Of a stretch of DNA of 64,000 bases, positions 2,489-21,887 are shown piece by piece. The notes under the pieces were generated by a model. The model was not told the DNA's origin. It was given only the letters and a program-made list of their open reading frames with translations, and did no database searches. The stretch comes from a virus. Lineage: Duplodnaviria; Caudoviricetes. Positions within the stretch are counted from its first letter, which is position 1. Each line of letters begins with the position of its first letter. Both the position numbers and the translations under genes were made by a program. Location: positions 841-64,840 of the IMG/VR virus record IMGVR_UViG_3300005533_000226; one strand, given 5' to 3'.

Positions 2489-2884
2489 CTATTCGTATCG
2501 TGGCGGGACAGGCGATCCATCAAAGCGCCTGTAACCCATCTTGCGTTTACGCCCACGGATTCCGCGATGACGCTGCCGCTTGCGGGCTGCGCGCGATTTT
2601 TCGCGCACGTCGCGCCGCGTCTTTTCCTTGTGAGGCTTATCCTTGAGCGCGGGCGCGAGATTGCTTTCGCGGTTCTCGCCGCCGTTGATGATCGCTTTGA
2701 TATGGTCGCAATCCCAATGGTCGCCGGGGAAAATTTTGCGGCCGGTGAGGTAGCATTTTCCTTCATAGCGCCTGAAGACGCGATCCTTGACGCGCGGCGG
2801 CGGCGGCGTGTCCGGCGTCTTGCCGATCCATTCCGGCACGCTGCGCGTGTCGAGTGCGATAGGGGTGATGGCGGGAACGGTCAC
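2489..2884 (-). CDS. HNH endonuclease
   Basis: CYLTG...WDCDHIKAIINGGENRESNL HNH motif. Confidence 0.85.
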   Translation of the reverse strand: MTVPAITPIALDTRSVPEWIGKTPDTPPPPRVKDRVFRRYEGKCYLTGRKIFPGDHWDCDHIKAIINGGENRESNLAPALKDKPHKEKTRRDVREKSRAARKRQRHRGIRGRKRKMGYRRFDGSPVPPRYE

Positions 2885-3600
2885 AGCGCGCTTAACCTTT
2901 CCTCGATGGCCTTGGCCGCCGCCTCATAGACCTGTCCGGCCATCTCTTGCCGGTAGGCGCGCACAATCTCGATGCAGCGCCGGTGCATCGCTGCTTCTTG
3001 CCCGGTGTCGGCGGGTAGAGCGGCGAGGGCTTCTATCGCTTCCTTGCAGGCGTCAGCGATCAGCTTGTTGCTGATGTTTGTGAATTGACGGATCGCGCGG
3101 TTGTTTTCTGACTGAATTCGCTTTACCGCTTCCAGCGCCGTTCGCAGCGTGTTGGATTGGGCGGTGTCAATCGGCTTCCAATGTCCGCGCTGATAGCATT
3201 CACGATCATCAAGGTCGCAATAGCACGCCCCGGCAGGTCGTTTCTTTACCGCTTCTTCGTATGAAATCTCGACAGTCGATAGAACGGCTAGTGCTTCTTT
3301 GGCCTCTTGAAGCATCGCGTCATAGGTAGAATTCGGAAGGCGCGAATAGCTTCTGTCGATTTTTTCTTTGACCAGCGCCCAGTAATTTTCCAGTGCTGCG
3401 CGCAGCTTGTCGGTAATTGGCCTCCCGGTGCCGGTGTAAAGGGACAGTGCAGCGAGAAACAAAACCCCAAAGTCGTCTTTTGAAATGCGACCTTCGATGA
3501 TTTTGCGTGGCCCATCGTTCTCAAATTTAGTTGTGGGACAGAATGTCGGGCGGACTCGCGCTTCAATTGCTCCTAGCGTCGCCAGCAGCTTGTCAGTCAT
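2881..3600 (-). CDS. Hypothetical phage protein
   Basis: 239 aa coupled ORF; contains WKPIDTA. Confidence 0.65.
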   Translation of the reverse strand: MTDKLLATLGAIEARVRPTFCPTTKFENDGPRKIIEGRISKDDFGVLFLAALSLYTGTGRPITDKLRAALENYWALVKEKIDRSYSRLPNSTYDAMLQEAKEALAVLSTVEISYEEAVKKRPAGACYCDLDDRECYQRGHWKPIDTAQSNTLRTALEAVKRIQSENNRAIRQFTNISNKLIADACKEAIEALAALPADTGQEAAMHRRCIEIVRAYRQEMAGQVYEAAAKAIEERLSAL

Positions 3601-3863
3601 GGCTTGCCCTTTCTCTTTGGTTGCCTCGGAGTGACGGCCACTATGACGGCACCGCGCGCAAAGCCCTTCCCTGTCACGCGCATCCCGACCGCTGGCATGA
3701 ACGGCGGTGGCGGAGCTGGGCGACGGAATCGCTTCGGCGGCGGATTGATGCCGCCTTTGCTATTCGAGACCGTTGGCAGCGGTTCCGTGCGCGCCTTCTG
3801 CCGCTTCGCGTGCTGCGCGAGCGCGTAGGCGGAGAGACCTTTCGGCTGTGCTTTCTTTTTCAT
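3597..3863 (-). CDS. Basic hypothetical protein
   Basis: ATGA-coupled to the Tas-like gene. Confidence 0.55.
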   Translation of the reverse strand: MKKKAQPKGLSAYALAQHAKRQKARTEPLPTVSNSKGGINPPPKRFRRPAPPPPFMPAVGMRVTGKGFARGAVIVAVTPRQPKRKGKP

Positions 3864-5113
3864 TTCGGATCGCTGTTTGCAGCCCGCTGGATTAACTCAA
3901 GTCTCCGCCACTCTTGGAACATCGCCTTGAGGAATTTTTTCACCACGTAACGGCTCGCTCTGATGGCGGCATATTCAGCGTAGCTTTCGCGCAATTGGCC
4001 ATCCGTCATCACCGGCTCGCGGGCAAATTCAGGATTATTTTGCACCTCATATCTGCATCGGCTGACAAACATTTTTTGCCAGCAGGTCATTTTGTCGTTT
4101 TTTTCGATGTCTTCGCCGACAAGAGGGCGTTTCATATAGCCGACAAGGTTATCCTCTATGAGATGCGCTGCTGCGCGCCGCCGTGGGCTATAGCCAGCAT
4201 TTTCCCATTCTGATTTTGAAAGTCCCGTGGCGCCCATTTTTCGCCACGTCGCGCAGGCGCGCACGGTGCCGTCCGCGCCTTTGACTGGCGCGAGACCAAG
4301 TCGCTTATAGAGCGCAGAGAATGAGCTGTATTTGGAGATGTCGCCGCATTCGCCGATGATGCGAACAAGCGACTTGATGCCAAGTCCTCTGAAGCCTGTA
4401 AACCACGTCGCGATAGGAATTGTTTTTGCGATTTTCCCTAGGTATTTATCCAGCTCCTTGATTTCATTTTCTATTGAATCGCTGAGTGCGATGATCGGAA
4501 GAACAGTGAATTTTTTGTCTTCATCTTCCGGCAGCATATCGCCTGATATAATACGCTTGAGCGCGTCGCCTCCCTTCTTCCAAGATTCTTTTTGCCCAAG
4601 ATGACTATAGCTGCGAGCGCAAAATGCGCGCGCGCGATTGTCGATTCCGATTTTCAATTTTTCCCATGCTCGATGCGTGGGCCATAGAGAAACGATTTGT
4701 TCTATGGGCGTGAAATTTTGATCTGACGCTGGGGCGGTGATTTGGGTGCTGCCAATGGTCCGATCACGGTCAAGCGATGGCTTTTTGAGTTGTGTATTGG
4801 AAGCGGCTTGACCAAAATCTTCGGAAGACATCTTCCCACTGATCGGTGGTTTTTGGCTGGTCTTCCGCGCGGATTTTTTGTCCGCAATAGAGTCGCCCGG
4901 CTGGCTCCCTTTGATATGCGTAAGCTTTGTGGCCGGGCGCGCTGATTTCTCAGCGATAGATTCGGATGGCAGAAGAAATTTGGTTTGCACCAGCGTTGGG
5001 GCCATCCGCGCGGTTTTCTTCCCGCGAACAAGTTTGCCCGGCGTGACCGTTCCGGTTTCGACCGCTATAGTGGCCGGGCATCCGCTTTGCGCGGAAATTT
5101 CATGCTTGCTCAT
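3860..5113 (-). CDS. IS110/Nop-domain RNA-binding protein (TasA-like); no RuvC or HNH domain; N-terminus encoded by the stem-loop array
   Basis: Coiled coil, then WFTGFRGLGIKSLVRIIGECGDISKYSSFSALYKRLGLAP (IS110 Transposase_20-like), YSPRRRA, and C-terminal AIRASRYVVKKFLKAMFQEWR. The likely ATG at 5113 overlaps the upstream stop. Confidence 0.8.
   Translation of the reverse strand: MSKHEISAQSGCPATIAVETGTVTPGKLVRGKKTARMAPTLVQTKFLLPSESIAEKSARPATKLTHIKGSQPGDSIADKKSARKTSQKPPISGKMSSEDFGQAASNTQLKKPSLDRDRTIGSTQITAPASDQNFTPIEQIVSLWPTHRAWEKLKIGIDNRARAFCARSYSHLGQKESWKKGGDALKRIISGDMLPEDEDKKFTVLPIIALSDSIENEIKELDKYLGKIAKTIPIATWFTGFRGLGIKSLVRIIGECGDISKYSSFSALYKRLGLAPVKGADGTVRACATWRKMGATGLSKSEWENAGYSPRRRAAAHLIEDNLVGYMKRPLVGEDIEKNDKMTCWQKMFVSRCRYEVQNNPEFAREPVMTDGQLRESYAEYAAIRASRYVVKKFLKAMFQEWRRLELIQRAANSDPK
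4720..5095 (-). ncRNA. Array of six 46-nt stem-loop guide-like units (TIGR-like stem-loop array)
   Basis: Units at 5035-5080, 4963-5008, 4894-4939, 4822-4867, 4768-4813 and 4720-4765. Each has an 8-bp inverted repeat around exactly 30 nt, with CCA- and YCA-like motifs 18 nt apart. Confidence 0.85.
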
Positions 5114-5628
5114 TGCCAAAAACCTTTCTGTGAATCTTGTTAGCCTGCTGAAGCGAGATGCACTGGCGAACGGTTTTTCCTTCGCTGATTTTTTTCGCGA
5201 TGAGTTTATAGAAGCTGCCCTTGGCGAGCATGTTTCTACCCTGCGCAAAATAGAATTCGCTTTCTTCAAGCAATTCTTCGCGCGTAACGTCGCCAAGTTT
5301 TCTTCCTGAACGCAGCATCATATCAAATAGGATGTTGCGCATTCCTTCCGCCGCCGCAGCCGTGGCTCGCGCCCCTTCTTCGTCCGGCCTGTTGGCGTTA
5401 TCCCAAATTTGTTTTCGCTGAGCGCGAGTGCAATGGCGGATCACGTTGTCACACGCGGTCCAAACCATAGCGTCAAAAAGTCCGCGATATAGTGATGGAT
5501 CGCGTTTGACGCGCTCAACCATCTTCTCGCGCGCTTTCTCAATAATGCCATCACACTCGTCGAGCGACTCCTTGGCCACGTCCCGAATTTTATTTTGAGT
5601 TGCCGGTGTGACGGAAAAAAAAGTTCAT
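5100..5628 (-). CDS. Hypothetical helical protein directly upstream of the Tas-like gene; apparent frameshift in a T8 run near its 5' end
   Basis: Open 5100-5579. The ATG at 5628 (ATGA-coupled) joins this frame only if the A8 at 5615-5622 were A7. Confidence 0.65.
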
Positions 5629-6044
5629 GCTGCCTCCTTCATGCGCTTCTGATTCCGCCGCTGGCCGCTCTTGCAAAGCCAGCGCAGATTGCCGCGCGTA
5701 TTGTTGAGGGTGTCGGTATCTATGTGATCGCCGGTGTGCCGATCCGTTGGACGCGGCAGGCCCATGCGATCAAGGATGACATCGTGCATCATTATGGTGA
5801 CGCGCCGATTTTCTTTGCGCGGACCTACGCGAATACAGCGTCGGGCATAGACGTGATTGCCGTGGCGCTTGTCGCTGATTTTGAATGTCCACGGCCATTG
5901 CATCAGATAGTCATAGTCTTCGGCCGACACGCGCACGCAGTATTGCGCTTTCGCGCCTATCGTGATCGTGCGCACATCCTCGTTGCGAGGATCATAAAGC
6001 TGGATCACCCGGTCGCCGGGGAATGGGATGACATCGCCGCTCAC
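5625..6044 (-). CDS. HNH endonuclease (HNH_3 type)
   Basis: MHDVIL...GDHIDTDTLNNTRGNLR. Confidence 0.85.
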   Translation of the reverse strand: MSGDVIPFPGDRVIQLYDPRNEDVRTITIGAKAQYCVRVSAEDYDYLMQWPWTFKISDKRHGNHVYARRCIRVGPRKENRRVTIMMHDVILDRMGLPRPTDRHTGDHIDTDTLNNTRGNLRWLCKSGQRRNQKRMKEAA

Positions 6045-7001: not shown

Positions 7002-7355
7002 TTAGATGTCCAATCTCATTTCAGCGCGCCGCGACGCCTCCATTGATCCAAGTTGCCGATCCTTCATCTCGATGTAGCGAAGCTGCACCTTCAGAAGATT
7101 CGCCGCCTTCCGCGCCTCGACCATCCTCTGATTGAACTGCGCCCATTCCGGCGAAGCCTTCACAGTCTGTTGCGCCTTGTTGAACGCCATCTTGGGATTC
7201 TGTTCTTGAACGCTGGCGATCAACTGCGCTTCGGTTGCAGAGCGCGTGTTTTCGAGAAGGGACGCAGCGGCTTCCGCGTCCACCCATTTTTTCGCAGCGA
7301 TGCGATATTCTTCCGGCCAGTCGCGGCGCCTGTTCGGATCAGCGGGCGCCACCAT
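7002..7355 (-). CDS. Coiled-coil protein, possibly a UvsY-like recombination accessory
   Basis: All-helical; lies next to the SSB and SSAP genes. Confidence 0.5.
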   Translation of the reverse strand: MVAPADPNRRRDWPEEYRIAAKKWVDAEAAASLLENTRSATEAQLIASVQEQNPKMAFNKAQQTVKASPEWAQFNQRMVEARKAANLLKVQLRYIEMKDRQLGSMEASRRAEMRLDI

Positions 7356-7801
7356 CAGAACGGAATTTCATCGTCCATCGCGCGTCCGCGATCATCGGAT
7401 TCGGGGCCGGGGTCGCCCCGGTCGCGGTCATCGGGGTAGTCATCGTGCCCGCGTCCGCGATCATCGCTCCGCCGATCATCCCGGCGGCCACCGCGACGAT
7501 CATCCCGATCATCATAACGGTCGCGATCACGGTCACGTCCGCGTCCGCTGCGTCCGCCACGGCTGTCGCGATCATCGCGATCACGGCCACGTCCACCGCG
7601 CCCACGCGACTCTTTTTCGTCGCCGCGCTTGAGCGCAATGTATTCATCGCCGCCCCGGCTTTCGTTCCACCAGCCCGACAGCCAGTATTCAACGCCGTCG
7701 ATGTTGATGCTGCCGCTGAAATCGCGATCCGTGCGACGTTTCTTGTCATCGTTCTTGAAAAGAACGCCTTGGTTGGTGTTGTCATAGTCGTCCCGCGCCA
7801 T
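7355..7801 (-). CDS. Phage single-stranded DNA-binding protein
   Basis: OB-like N-terminus (GVLFKNDDK...FSGSINIDGVEYWLSGW), RD-rich linker, C-terminal DDEIPF tail. Confidence 0.75.
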   Translation of the reverse strand: MARDDYDNTNQGVLFKNDDKKRRTDRDFSGSINIDGVEYWLSGWWNESRGGDEYIALKRGDEKESRGRGGRGRDRDDRDSRGGRSGRGRDRDRDRYDDRDDRRGGRRDDRRSDDRGRGHDDYPDDRDRGDPGPESDDRGRAMDDEIPF

Positions 7802-7825
7802 GGTTGGTCTCCTTTGGCGTTTCAA

Positions 7826-11065: not shown

Positions 11066-11764
11066 TTATGCGTCTCCCGACATAACGATGCGATGCACTG
11101 AGACGACTTGTTCGCGGTCGAAAACGAATGGTCGCTCAGGGTTGAGCTGTTCAAGCCTCAGCTTCTTGTCATCCATCGAGACAAACCGCTTTACATACGC
11201 TGCCGGTGGCTCGCCATCGTCTCCGAGAATTTGAGCGATGACGTAATCTCCTTTGCGCACTGGCAGGTGCGGGTTGATGAAGACTGTTTCGCCGGGCATG
11301 TAGCGCGGCGTCATGGAATCGCCGACTACATAGACCGCGTAAGCGTCAGGGACGCCCGTGAGAGACGGCGGCGCCAGCACGTCCGTCACCTTGTTTCCAT
11401 TGAGAATGAACTGTCCATCTTTGCCCCCTACAGCGTGCCCGTAAACCGGGACTGTTGTGAATTTGCCGACTGAACTGCCGATCTTAGCGTTGGCAATTTG
11501 TCGCAGGGGTGCGGCATCGGAGTCAAGCGATCCGCGCAGCTCCGATTCAGGAATGCTTAAAATCTCCGCGACTTGCGGTCGAATTTTTTCTGGCAACACC
11601 TTCGGAATTCCGCGCTTGATGAACTGCTGAATATAGGAATGACTTTGGCCGATTTTTTTCGACAAATCGGACCATGGGATTTTCAGCTCTGACGTTCGTT
11701 CTGCAACCAAATCGCGCACGCGCTGATCGCGCTCGTCGTCGATTTTTGTTGGCTTCTTGATCAT
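11066..11764 (-). CDS. CI-like repressor (HTH plus S24 autopeptidase)
   Basis: LSKKIGQSHSYIQQFI HTH, VGDSMTP catalytic Ser, YVKR catalytic Lys. Confidence 0.92.
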   Translation of the reverse strand: MIKKPTKIDDERDQRVRDLVAERTSELKIPWSDLSKKIGQSHSYIQQFIKRGIPKVLPEKIRPQVAEILSIPESELRGSLDSDAAPLRQIANAKIGSSVGKFTTVPVYGHAVGGKDGQFILNGNKVTDVLAPPSLTGVPDAYAVYVVGDSMTPRYMPGETVFINPHLPVRKGDYVIAQILGDDGEPPAAYVKRFVSMDDKKLRLEQLNPERPFVFDREQVVSVHRIVMSGDA

Positions 11765-11856
11765 CTCTGTTCCCTGCTGAACCAACGGTTAATGGTTGTG
11801 CGGTTGTCCTTTTTACCCGCTTCGCCCGCCGCCTTCAACAACCTATTTTGCCCGCA

Positions 11857-21290: not shown

Positions 21291-21565
21291 AACCGATCAT
21301 GGCCAAGGGTTGCAACGTTGTGCTTGCGTCGCCGGAAGATTGGATTGGCCGCGATCACGGGCATGACAATTTGCCGGTCACTTATCAAGACGGCAAGTAT
21401 TTTTCGCTTTGGCAGCCAAGCACTGAGGAATTGCTGGCGATGTTCGCTGGCGCTCCCGTGCTTTTGCAGTTGGACGGTGACTCGCATCCGCCAGCGTGGG
21501 TCTCGATTGGTGAGAAGCCATCGCTTGCTGAACAGCGCAAGGCTCACGTCCATGGGCGCGGCTAA
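21287..21565 (+). CDS. Conserved phage hypothetical protein
   Basis: LASPEDW...LPV...SLWQPSTEEL...HPP. Confidence 0.6.
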   Translation: MKPIMAKGCNVVLASPEDWIGRDHGHDNLPVTYQDGKYFSLWQPSTEELLAMFAGAPVLLQLDGDSHPPAWVSIGEKPSLAEQRKAHVHGRG

Positions 21566-21887
21566 ACCAAGATTGGTGTCGGCACCCGGAAGGGTCGCGA
21601 CTCTTGATACCCGAAAGGTCAGGAACGCAGAGACCGGCACCAACCCGTTTTATCTCACGGTCGAATGGCGTTCGCTTGTTAAGCATCTGATCAAGGTGCG
21701 CGGCTATCGCTGCGAAGACCCGAAATGCAAATACCCTGATCGCAAGCCAACGCGCTTATTCGGCGATCACATTGTTGAGCTGGCTGACGGCGGCGCGAAG
21801 CTTGATCCCGAAAACGTAATGCTGCGTTGTGGCTCGTGTCACACGCGCAAGACGAATGAAGAACGCGCGAAGCGCATGGCCCGATAG
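21552..21887 (+). CDS. HNH endonuclease, terminase-associated (HK97 gp74-like)
   Basis: FYLTVEWR...CEDPKC...DHIVELADGG...NVMLRCGSCHTRKT. Confidence 0.85.
   Translation: MGAAKPRLVSAPGRVATLDTRKVRNAETGTNPFYLTVEWRSLVKHLIKVRGYRCEDPKCKYPDRKPTRLFGDHIVELADGGAKLDPENVMLRCGSCHTRKTNEERAKRMAR

Follow-up and report, generated by a model that had tools for sequence, protein, structure and literature searches.

The DNA stretch analysed here, called the window in what follows, comprises 64,000 nucleotides (nt) of the viral record IMGVR_UViG_3300005533_000226 (positions 841 to 64,840). It carries a gene, tasA, that encodes a Tas-like Nop-domain protein, and the first ~130 codons of this gene double as an array of six hairpins (U1 to U6) with the geometry of tigRNAs, the guide RNAs of TIGR-Tas systems (Table 1). 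A candidate partner gene lies immediately upstream of tasA, and both genes are part of the leftward early operon of a siphovirus-like prophage. The preferred reading, to which a probability of roughly 0.8 is assigned, is that the locus represents a nuclease-less, TasA-type member of the stem-loop TIGR-Tas systems.

Table 1. Position and character of the features of the tasA locus and of the prophage repressor gene (window coordinates)
Feature	Position	Strand	Description
tasA, 417 residues	3860..5113	-	ATG at 5113, stop at 3860; from open reading frame, AlphaFold model and profile matches
Stem-loop TIGR array	4720..5095	-	six tigRNA units and linker hairpins, wholly within the tasA reading frame
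Mini-hairpin before U1	5081..5095	-	5 base pairs, 5-nt loop; -7.8 kcal; 1/200 shuffles as good
U1	5035..5080	-	box C CCA; inner D'/C' UC/CCG, inner pair broken; outer D CG; covariance model 20.6 bits
Mini-hairpin before U2	5009..5026	-	5 base pairs, 8-nt A-rich loop; -8.6 kcal; 4/200 shuffles as good
U2	4963..5008	-	box C CCC; sole fully canonical inner segment (UG, 4-nt loop, CCA); outer D UG; model 29.0 bits, best in window
Mini-hairpin before U3	4940..4955	-	6 base pairs, GAAA loop; -8.1 kcal; 1/200 shuffles as good
U3	4894..4939	-	box C CCA; inner pair G.U; C' UCA; outer D AG; model 23.3 bits
Mini-hairpin before U4	4869..4885	-	5 base pairs, 7-nt A-rich loop; -7.1 kcal; 2/200 shuffles as good
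U4	4822..4867	-	box C CCA; inner pair A-U; C' UCA; outer D UG; in-frame Met106 ATG assigned here; model 20.2 bits
U5	4768..4813	-	box C CCG; inner pair A-U; C' UCA; outer D CG; model 18.2 bits
U6	4720..4765	-	one stem mismatch; inner pair broken (C/U); weakest unit, possibly decayed; absent from model matches at E up to 10
Candidate partner gene, 159 residues	5100..5579	-	all-helical, no known family; stop overlaps tasA start by 14 nt
CI-type repressor	11066..11785		prophage gene

A Nop-domain protein gene that doubles as a hairpin array

Re-reading of positions 3600-5400 reproduces all six stem-loop units, which span 4720-5080 on the minus strand, exactly where an initial annotation made from the sequence alone had placed them. 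The stems of U1 to U5 are perfect over 8 base pairs (bp) and that of U6 contains one mismatch, a G.A, as had been recorded; stem sequences vary between units with the 8-bp pairing retained, which agrees with the original description. In 6/6 units the loop is exactly 30 nt long, with C at loop positions 1 and 19. When the last stem base is included, each unit can be parsed as 3+9+2+4+3+9+2 nt, corresponding to box C, spacer A, box D', a loop, box C', spacer B and box D. Box C reads CCA in four units, CCC in one and CCG in one, and box C' reads UCA in four units, CCG in one and CCA in one. Box D consists of one letter and the G that opens the 3' stem, and the outer G as well as the outer C-G pair is found in 6/6 units. 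The texts of Faure 2025 (PMC12045711) and of the Xu 2026 preprint describe tigRNAs with a box C CCA, a box D UG, 9-nt spacers and a 9-nt inner "loop repeat", and in the stem-loop class variable palindromic stems replace the edge repeat (Faure 2025, PMC12045711). The CCA-N9 style of layout that had been claimed for the window matches the published geometry of stem-loop tigRNAs in its pair of 9-nt spacers, its inner segment of 9 nt and its variable palindromic stems.

The whole 64-kb window contains nine perfect 8-bp stems with a 30-nt loop, five of which lie in 4768-5080; other loop lengths from 20 to 44 nt give zero to five such stems each, and none at 32 nt. The 421-nt array stretch folds at -149.8 kcal/mol compared with -120.8 +/- 5.2 kcal/mol for 100 dinucleotide shuffles (z -5.6; 0/100 equal), and its minimum-energy fold contains all five perfect stems. 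An Rfam search of the window matched no family.

An AlphaFold model of TasA, built on a 36-row alignment, has predicted local distance difference test (pLDDT) values below 50 for residues 1-5 and 15-123 and high values from about residue 130, and residues ~130-417 form a coiled coil and a Nop RNA-binding domain in the model. The disordered part of the protein is the part encoded by the array: U6 ends at codon 131, and the conserved part of the protein begins by residue 125. The structural comparison with Tas, Nop5 and IS110 proteins that had been proposed as a check gives a confident Nop fold with TasR and TasH at the top, in support of the suggested Nop/IS110-like character: the best fold matches are TasR and TasH, followed by IS110 recombinases and then by Nop5, Nop56 and Prp31. 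In Foldseek, ranks 1-10 are all TasR or TasH chains (E 1e-5 to 2e-3); IS621 and ISCro4 come next, and then Nop5, Nop56/58 and Prp31, the matches to Nop5 and Nop56/58 being weak (E 0.03-0.3). A VIA search of 48,161 chains places TasR (9mty_B) at Z 15.7 with a root-mean-square deviation of 2.6 over 188 aligned residues, TasH (21kl_A) at Z 14.7 and ISCro4 at Z 12.8, and the entries after ISCro4 have Z about 8 and match the coiled coil only. Consistently, a profile of 36 homologues compared with PDB sequences finds TasR (9MTY; E 2.3e-9), which is the TasR ribonucleoprotein (RNP) of Faure 2025 (PMC12045711), and TasH (E 0.004); the single TasA sequence finds no match among PDB sequences.

The aligned portions of TasR and TasH leave out their nuclease domains. 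Residues 1-130 of TasA contain no Pfam domain and are disordered in the model, and the IS110 DEDD RuvC-like domain (PF01548) is not matched in the Pfam search of TasA, in line with the claim that DEDD-RuvC and HNH domains are absent. No nuclease domain is found in the protein, as expected for the proposed TasA-like type. The NCBIfam model NF052498 (TIGR_Tas_endo) matches residues 150-403 over profile positions 11-215 with E 1.2e-14 (54.8 bits), and PADLOC gives no match. TasA and its relatives in a large protein collection form a set of 36, none of which carries a Pfam label, and all nine residues invariant among these 36 homologues are retained in TasA of the window.

Related loci and the reading frame of the array

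The 125 related loci comprise 45 viral ones and the 80 best among 192 confirmed metagenomic ones. A search for stems of at least 7 bp ending in C with a loop starting with C shows that homologous genes carry fixed-length stem-loops as well, with 281 unique units in 77/125 loci. At positions not selected by the search, these units have T or C at 12 in 95%, G13 in 96%, C18 in 98%, C19 in 98%, A20 in 71% and T or C at 30 in 96%. Hairpins with 7-bp stems and 30-nt loops occur 134 times in the 45 viral loci, compared with 34-58 times for odd loop lengths; the counts for 32, 34, 36 and 38 nt are elevated too, as longer stems enclose the same loop there. The units of the viral loci lie on the sense strand in 111 cases and on the antisense strand in 14.

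A covariance model, which had been proposed as a check for the six units themselves, was built from the units of the relatives (model R1; a random pick of 140 of the 281 units, containing no window sequence) and run on the 64-kb window with filters off. U2, U3, U1, U4 and U5 are matches 1-5 on both strands taken together, whereas U6 is missed, so that the model recovers five of the six proposed units. The remaining matches in the window (42 in total at E up to 10) are short GC hairpins. In 24 related loci, all 150 model matches fall on the sense strand and score 15 to 40 bits; in the whole host genome, the model finds nothing at E 0.001. On this evidence, the window units are members of the family that score in its lower range. 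In some close relatives (locus L001, 3601-3816; locus L052, 2081-2204 and 3344-3644), the 3' end of tas holds units of 50-53 nt whose loops exceed those of the usual 46-nt form.

All six units begin at codon position 1, and each of their spacings (72, 69, 72, 54 and 48 nt) is divisible by 3. Frame 0 is free of stops for 131 codons over the array, against two and four stops in the other sense frames. Among the upstream units of the family, 155/238 lie in a frame that continues into the Nop domain and 83/238 lie outside the frame; the closest relatives likewise keep their units within the tas frame. Family-wide, the true frame is open for a median of 624 nt upstream of the conserved KRLGLA-type motif, compared with 96 nt for the other two frames. 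In-frame arrays at the 5' end, at the 3' end or inside tas, in disordered regions, are reported in the text of the Xu 2026 preprint, which also demonstrates processed in-gene tigRNAs for BlTasA. A longer, TTG-started reading of the frame to 5296 overlaps the upstream gene, and TTG is unlikely to be the true tasA start. The last in-frame start before the conserved protein is Met106 (ATG 4798-4796, stated as inside U4). With either start, coding sequence thus overlaps U5, U6 and the 3' end of U4.

Unit spacing was also considered as a test of translation and was rejected, because in-frame and out-of-frame arrays behave alike: the spacing is a multiple of 3 in 56/91 pairs inside the tas frame and in 30/52 outside it, counts that come from related loci and are not independent. 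Phase 1 is depleted within open reading frames (5/176), in part circularly, since UGA in phase 1 ends the frame.

Alternative readings, mechanism and known systems

Several observations weigh against the TIGR-TasA reading. The initial annotation was right to speak of degenerate D-box positions, as the inner D'/C' segment, in which the departures are concentrated, deviates from the family consensus in five units. The inner box UG is found in 1/6 units, G13 in 2/6 compared with 96% of the family, and C18 in 2/6 compared with 98%. The 13:18 position, a conserved C-G pair in the TasR structure (Faure 2025, PMC12045711), is G-C, G.U, A-U and A-U in U2 to U5 and is broken in U1 and U6. The window units score 29 to 18 bits compared with 15 to 40 bits in relatives, and U6 goes undetected. 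The TIGR_Tas_endo score of the protein lies below the curated equivalog cut-off of 100 bits; judged by its sequence, TasA is a homologue of TIGR_Tas_endo and not that equivalog, which fits a nuclease-less protein. The G+C content (GC) per codon position is flat in the array part (0.53/0.55/0.58) compared with the Nop part (0.53/0.43/0.54), indicating that RNA constraints dominate the array part, and with Met106 as an alternative start the translation of codons 1-105 stays predicted. Finally, the 3.28-Mb host genome contains no tandem spacer target with 0 or 1 mismatch, and targets with up to 3 mismatches are at chance level (44, compared with 50 in the control geometry). This search paired spacer A with the reverse-complemented spacer B at gaps of 0-2 nt, with the opposite order as the control; the text of Faure 2025 (PMC12045711) gives an 8-nt 3' overhang and a C-5 rule, from which the geometry was deduced, and since its statements on the cut side conflict, both orders were tried.

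These departures raise the question of whether the system is partly decayed, with an intact protein, mostly dead guides and at most U2 and U3 active. Such decay would account for the retention in just 2/6 window units of D'/C' positions that are 96-98% conserved in the 281 family units, for the stem mismatch of U6 and its absence from the model matches, and for scores in the lower part of the family range. The inner pair, however, has become A-U in U4 and U5, with both bases changed, and G.U in U3, which looks like kept pairing and not like drift; the reading frame and loop lengths are intact, all stems were counted as intact, and the protein retains every residue that is invariant across its family. 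The closest clade, which shares an insertion containing RPLVGED, likewise has a box D that is mostly CG instead of UG, so part of the "degenerate D box" is a clade trait. Decay on this scale is considered rather unlikely. With the inner D'/C' off consensus in five units, full activity may be limited to a subset of the guides, most likely U2 and U3. Judged from their sequences, U2 and U3 are probably functional as guides, U4 and U5 possibly so, and a guide function of U1 and U6 is doubtful.

A different question is where translation begins. With a start at Met106, U1 to U3 and most of U4 would belong to an untranslated leader that separates tasA from the partner gene, and the overlap with coding sequence would be confined to U5, U6 and the 3' end of U4. 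The array part lacks the usual second-position GC dip, a second sense frame is also open here for 109 codons, and out-of-frame arrays are frequent in relatives. Against these points stand the stop-free frame 0 and the single codon phase of all six units, the long open frame upstream of the conserved motif throughout the family, the report of in-frame arrays as a regular feature in the text of the Xu 2026 preprint, and the ATG at 5113, which overlaps the partner stop as in coupled phage genes and is preceded by GAAAGG 9 nt upstream. A start at Met106 is considered about as unlikely as the decay described above. Far less probable is an IS110-family transposase remnant whose hairpins would be a bridge-RNA-like leader. 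The Pfam family Transposase_20 matches TasA weakly (E 0.054) and is weakly touched by 28/36 family members, PHROG families labelled "transposase" match with E 1.1e-9, and IS621 and ISCro4 are among the structural matches; but TasR and TasH outrank the IS110 recombinases by both sequence and fold, a disordered N-terminus stands where a remnant would have its DEDD RuvC domain, the gene is present in a single copy in the genome, and six tandem units of fixed geometry do not resemble one two-loop bridge RNA. It is just as improbable that the hairpins have no RNA role and are a by-product of a repetitive disordered peptide or generic palindromic elements. The region does encode loosely repeated peptides of 15-24 residues, but the stem sequences vary with pairing kept, and in relatives the 30-nt loop recurs with its conserved letters whether or not a unit lies in a reading frame, on the sense strand only.

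For the TIGR-TasA reading, a mechanism can be outlined from the texts of Faure 2025, of the Xu 2026 preprint and of a preprint on PlTasA (10.64898/2026.08.11.744272). The operon transcript would be cut in its single-stranded linkers to give single hairpin guides, and one guide would be bound by a TasA dimer. The two spacers would then pair with opposite DNA strands, spacer A with the first and spacer B with the adjoining 9 nt on the second, and the bound complex may block transcription or another DNA transaction without cutting. A TasA that acts as a repressor is described in the Xu 2026 preprint, and by analogy with this work and the PlTasA preprint, TasA of the window may be an RNA-guided repressor. 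As the guides lie within the tasA message, each processing event would destroy one tasA mRNA, so that guide and protein output would be tied together.

The novelty of the locus had been overstated, because stem-loop arrays are already described in the text of Faure 2025 (PMC12045711) and in-frame arrays and a TasA repressor in that of Xu 2026. The class was thus described in 2025-2026, and the locus is a further example with a weak-looking array. PlTasA (Faure 2025; preprint 10.64898/2026.08.11.744272), which comes from a contig of the Peromyscus gut, and MbTasA (Xu 2026) are likewise nuclease-less Nop proteins with a disordered N-terminus and have tandem hairpins with variable palindromic stems, two ~9-nt spacers and box C/D letters in a viral setting. 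In contrast to these two, the window has a degenerate D'/C' in 5/6 units, its whole array within the gene and a helical partner upstream. TasA of the window is ~14-19% identical to the solved Tas chains of TasR and TasH, and PlTasA is absent from its matches. In BlTasA of Bifidobacterium longum and in other in-gene arrays of the Xu 2026 text, units also lie in frame in tas within regions that are disordered in the protein; the embedded unit of BlTasA, however, maps to the wedge loop, whereas all six units of the window lie in the N-terminal tail. The CUU stem-base motif of the Xu 2026 text occurs in the window after U1 only, and U2 and U3 are followed by pyrimidine stretches of the UCU/CUC type.

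The dual-repeat TIGR nucleases TaTasR (9MTY) and SpTasH (9VZX, 21KL) are the best structural and sequence matches. They have the coiled coil and Nop core in common with TasA, and 9+9-nt spacers and a 9-nt inner segment in common with the window units, but they carry RuvC or HNH domains and a Y/H processing loop, and their guides have a fixed length of 36 nt and conserved repeats. The IS110/IS621 bridge-RNA recombinases (8WT6, 9T56) have a homologous RNA-binding domain and a guide RNA 5' of the gene, as in the window; they also have their own DEDD RuvC domain, act as recombinases with one bridge RNA and exist in many genomic copies, and none of these traits is found in the window system. Box C/D RNPs (Nop5, Nop56/58) share the Nop fold, the coiled-coil dimer and two guides per RNA, but act on RNA, with fibrillarin, L7Ae and K-turns. 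The text of the Xu 2026 preprint gives the natural targets and roles of TasA as unknown, with most loci on metagenomic fragments, and calls for work in native hosts. The complete TasA locus described here lies in a complete-looking prophage of a 99%-complete bacterial genome and so offers a native-host context for study, and the in-gene arrangement is extreme, with all six guides in one codon phase.

The upstream partner, linker hairpins and prophage setting

The candidate partner gene recurs in related loci. With a profile of 18 members, it is detected in 57/130 loci, directly upstream of tas and in the same orientation, and in 43/87 loci with at least 1500 nt of upstream sequence; a tblastn search with the single sequence finds it in this position in 28 fetched loci. 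Five other neighbours from the window, searched by tblastn over the fetched loci, have no match save one HNH gene in two loci. In 47/56 partner-bearing loci, the units lie between the partner and the Nop domain, as in the window. Among 301 genomes of the same order, the partner is present in two, in both cases adjoining tas, and in 0/295 genomes without a tas match, although these are small numbers from related genomes. In one genome of this order (G021:C7, locus L128, minus strand), the order is array, partner, array, tas, array, with units at 1342-1459, 2354-2480 and 3104-3390. Members of the partner family are ~160-175 residues long (for example at L046 1684-2199, at L095 512-1015 and at L133) and fall into 2357 representative clusters in a library of 1.84 billion proteins.

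No Pfam, NCBIfam, PADLOC or PHROG label attaches to the partner. Its model is all-helical and confident (pLDDT 85; predicted template modelling score 0.46), and fold searches give no usable match (best VIA Z 6.0; Foldseek E >2). An Atlas search returns viral hypothetical proteins only, and a word-index search matches the partner itself alone. For dual-repeat TasA, a ParB-like gene is the one partner named in the text of Faure 2025 (PMC12045711); no ParB is among the fold matches of the helical partner, a comparison with TasParB that was made without the published TasParB sequences. A full-text literature search on accessory genes or prophage TasA gave no further paper. The GC is 0.51 for the partner, 0.50 for the Nop part of tasA and 0.55 for its array part, compared with 0.578 for the window, 0.631 for the genome and 0.55-0.64 for neighbouring early genes, which suggests that the partner and tasA arrived as one module. 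From its recurrent position, the helical upstream protein is probably part of the TIGR-TasA module.

The four linker mini-hairpins of the window abut the stem of the next unit, differ in stem sequence in a covarying manner and follow a pyrimidine-rich single strand of 7-8 nt. In relatives, 60 unique linkers of 14-40 nt have a mean folding energy of -8.1 kcal/mol compared with -3.9 kcal/mol when shuffled, and 43/60 reach -4 kcal/mol or better, mostly with a tetraloop hairpin at the 3' end of the linker (for example in L044, L053, L069, L074 and L095). The text of the Xu 2026 preprint discusses linker length and the CUU motif and raises "auxiliary factors" for processing as a question; no mention of linker hairpins or of a helical partner was found in the text of Faure 2025 or of Xu 2026, whose figures and supplements may hold them. 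These two clade features, the partner gene and the linker hairpins, could bear on the maturation of stem-loop guides. A more speculative and on balance improbable extension is that the partner, the linker mini-hairpins and the pyrimidine-rich strands form a dedicated maturation or loading module for stem-loop tigRNAs in the TasA clade, the guides within the message then acting as a built-in feedback between guide and protein. If true, this would answer who cuts stem-loop arrays, a question left by the text of Xu 2026.

The phage setting proposed at the outset is borne out, as the window holds a complete-looking siphovirus-like prophage. Its leftward early operon contains genes for an exonuclease, Erf, SSB, a DnaQ-like exonuclease and an HNH protein, followed by the partner gene and tasA; replication genes and genes for terminase, portal, protease and tail proteins run rightward. 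The best minus-strand promoter-like site, at 10437-10408, is PL-like and stands at the head of the leftward operon, by consensus match only, and the promoter scan finds no promoter-like site adjoining tasA. The tas gene has matches in 6/301 genomes of the same order, its own included, three of them strong, and in 0/8 other genomes of the same family; this sparse distribution among related genomes fits a mobile gene.

The prophage contains three HNH endonuclease genes, at 5625-6044 (-), 2489-2884 (-) and 21318-21887 (+). The gene at 5625-6044 lies one gene upstream of the partner-tasA pair and has a marginal match to the Pfam family Barwin (22.8 bits; cut-off 21). The SSB-like protein encoded at 7355-7825 (-) extends at its C-terminus into a long tail in which R, D and G are abundant, with RDRD repeats.

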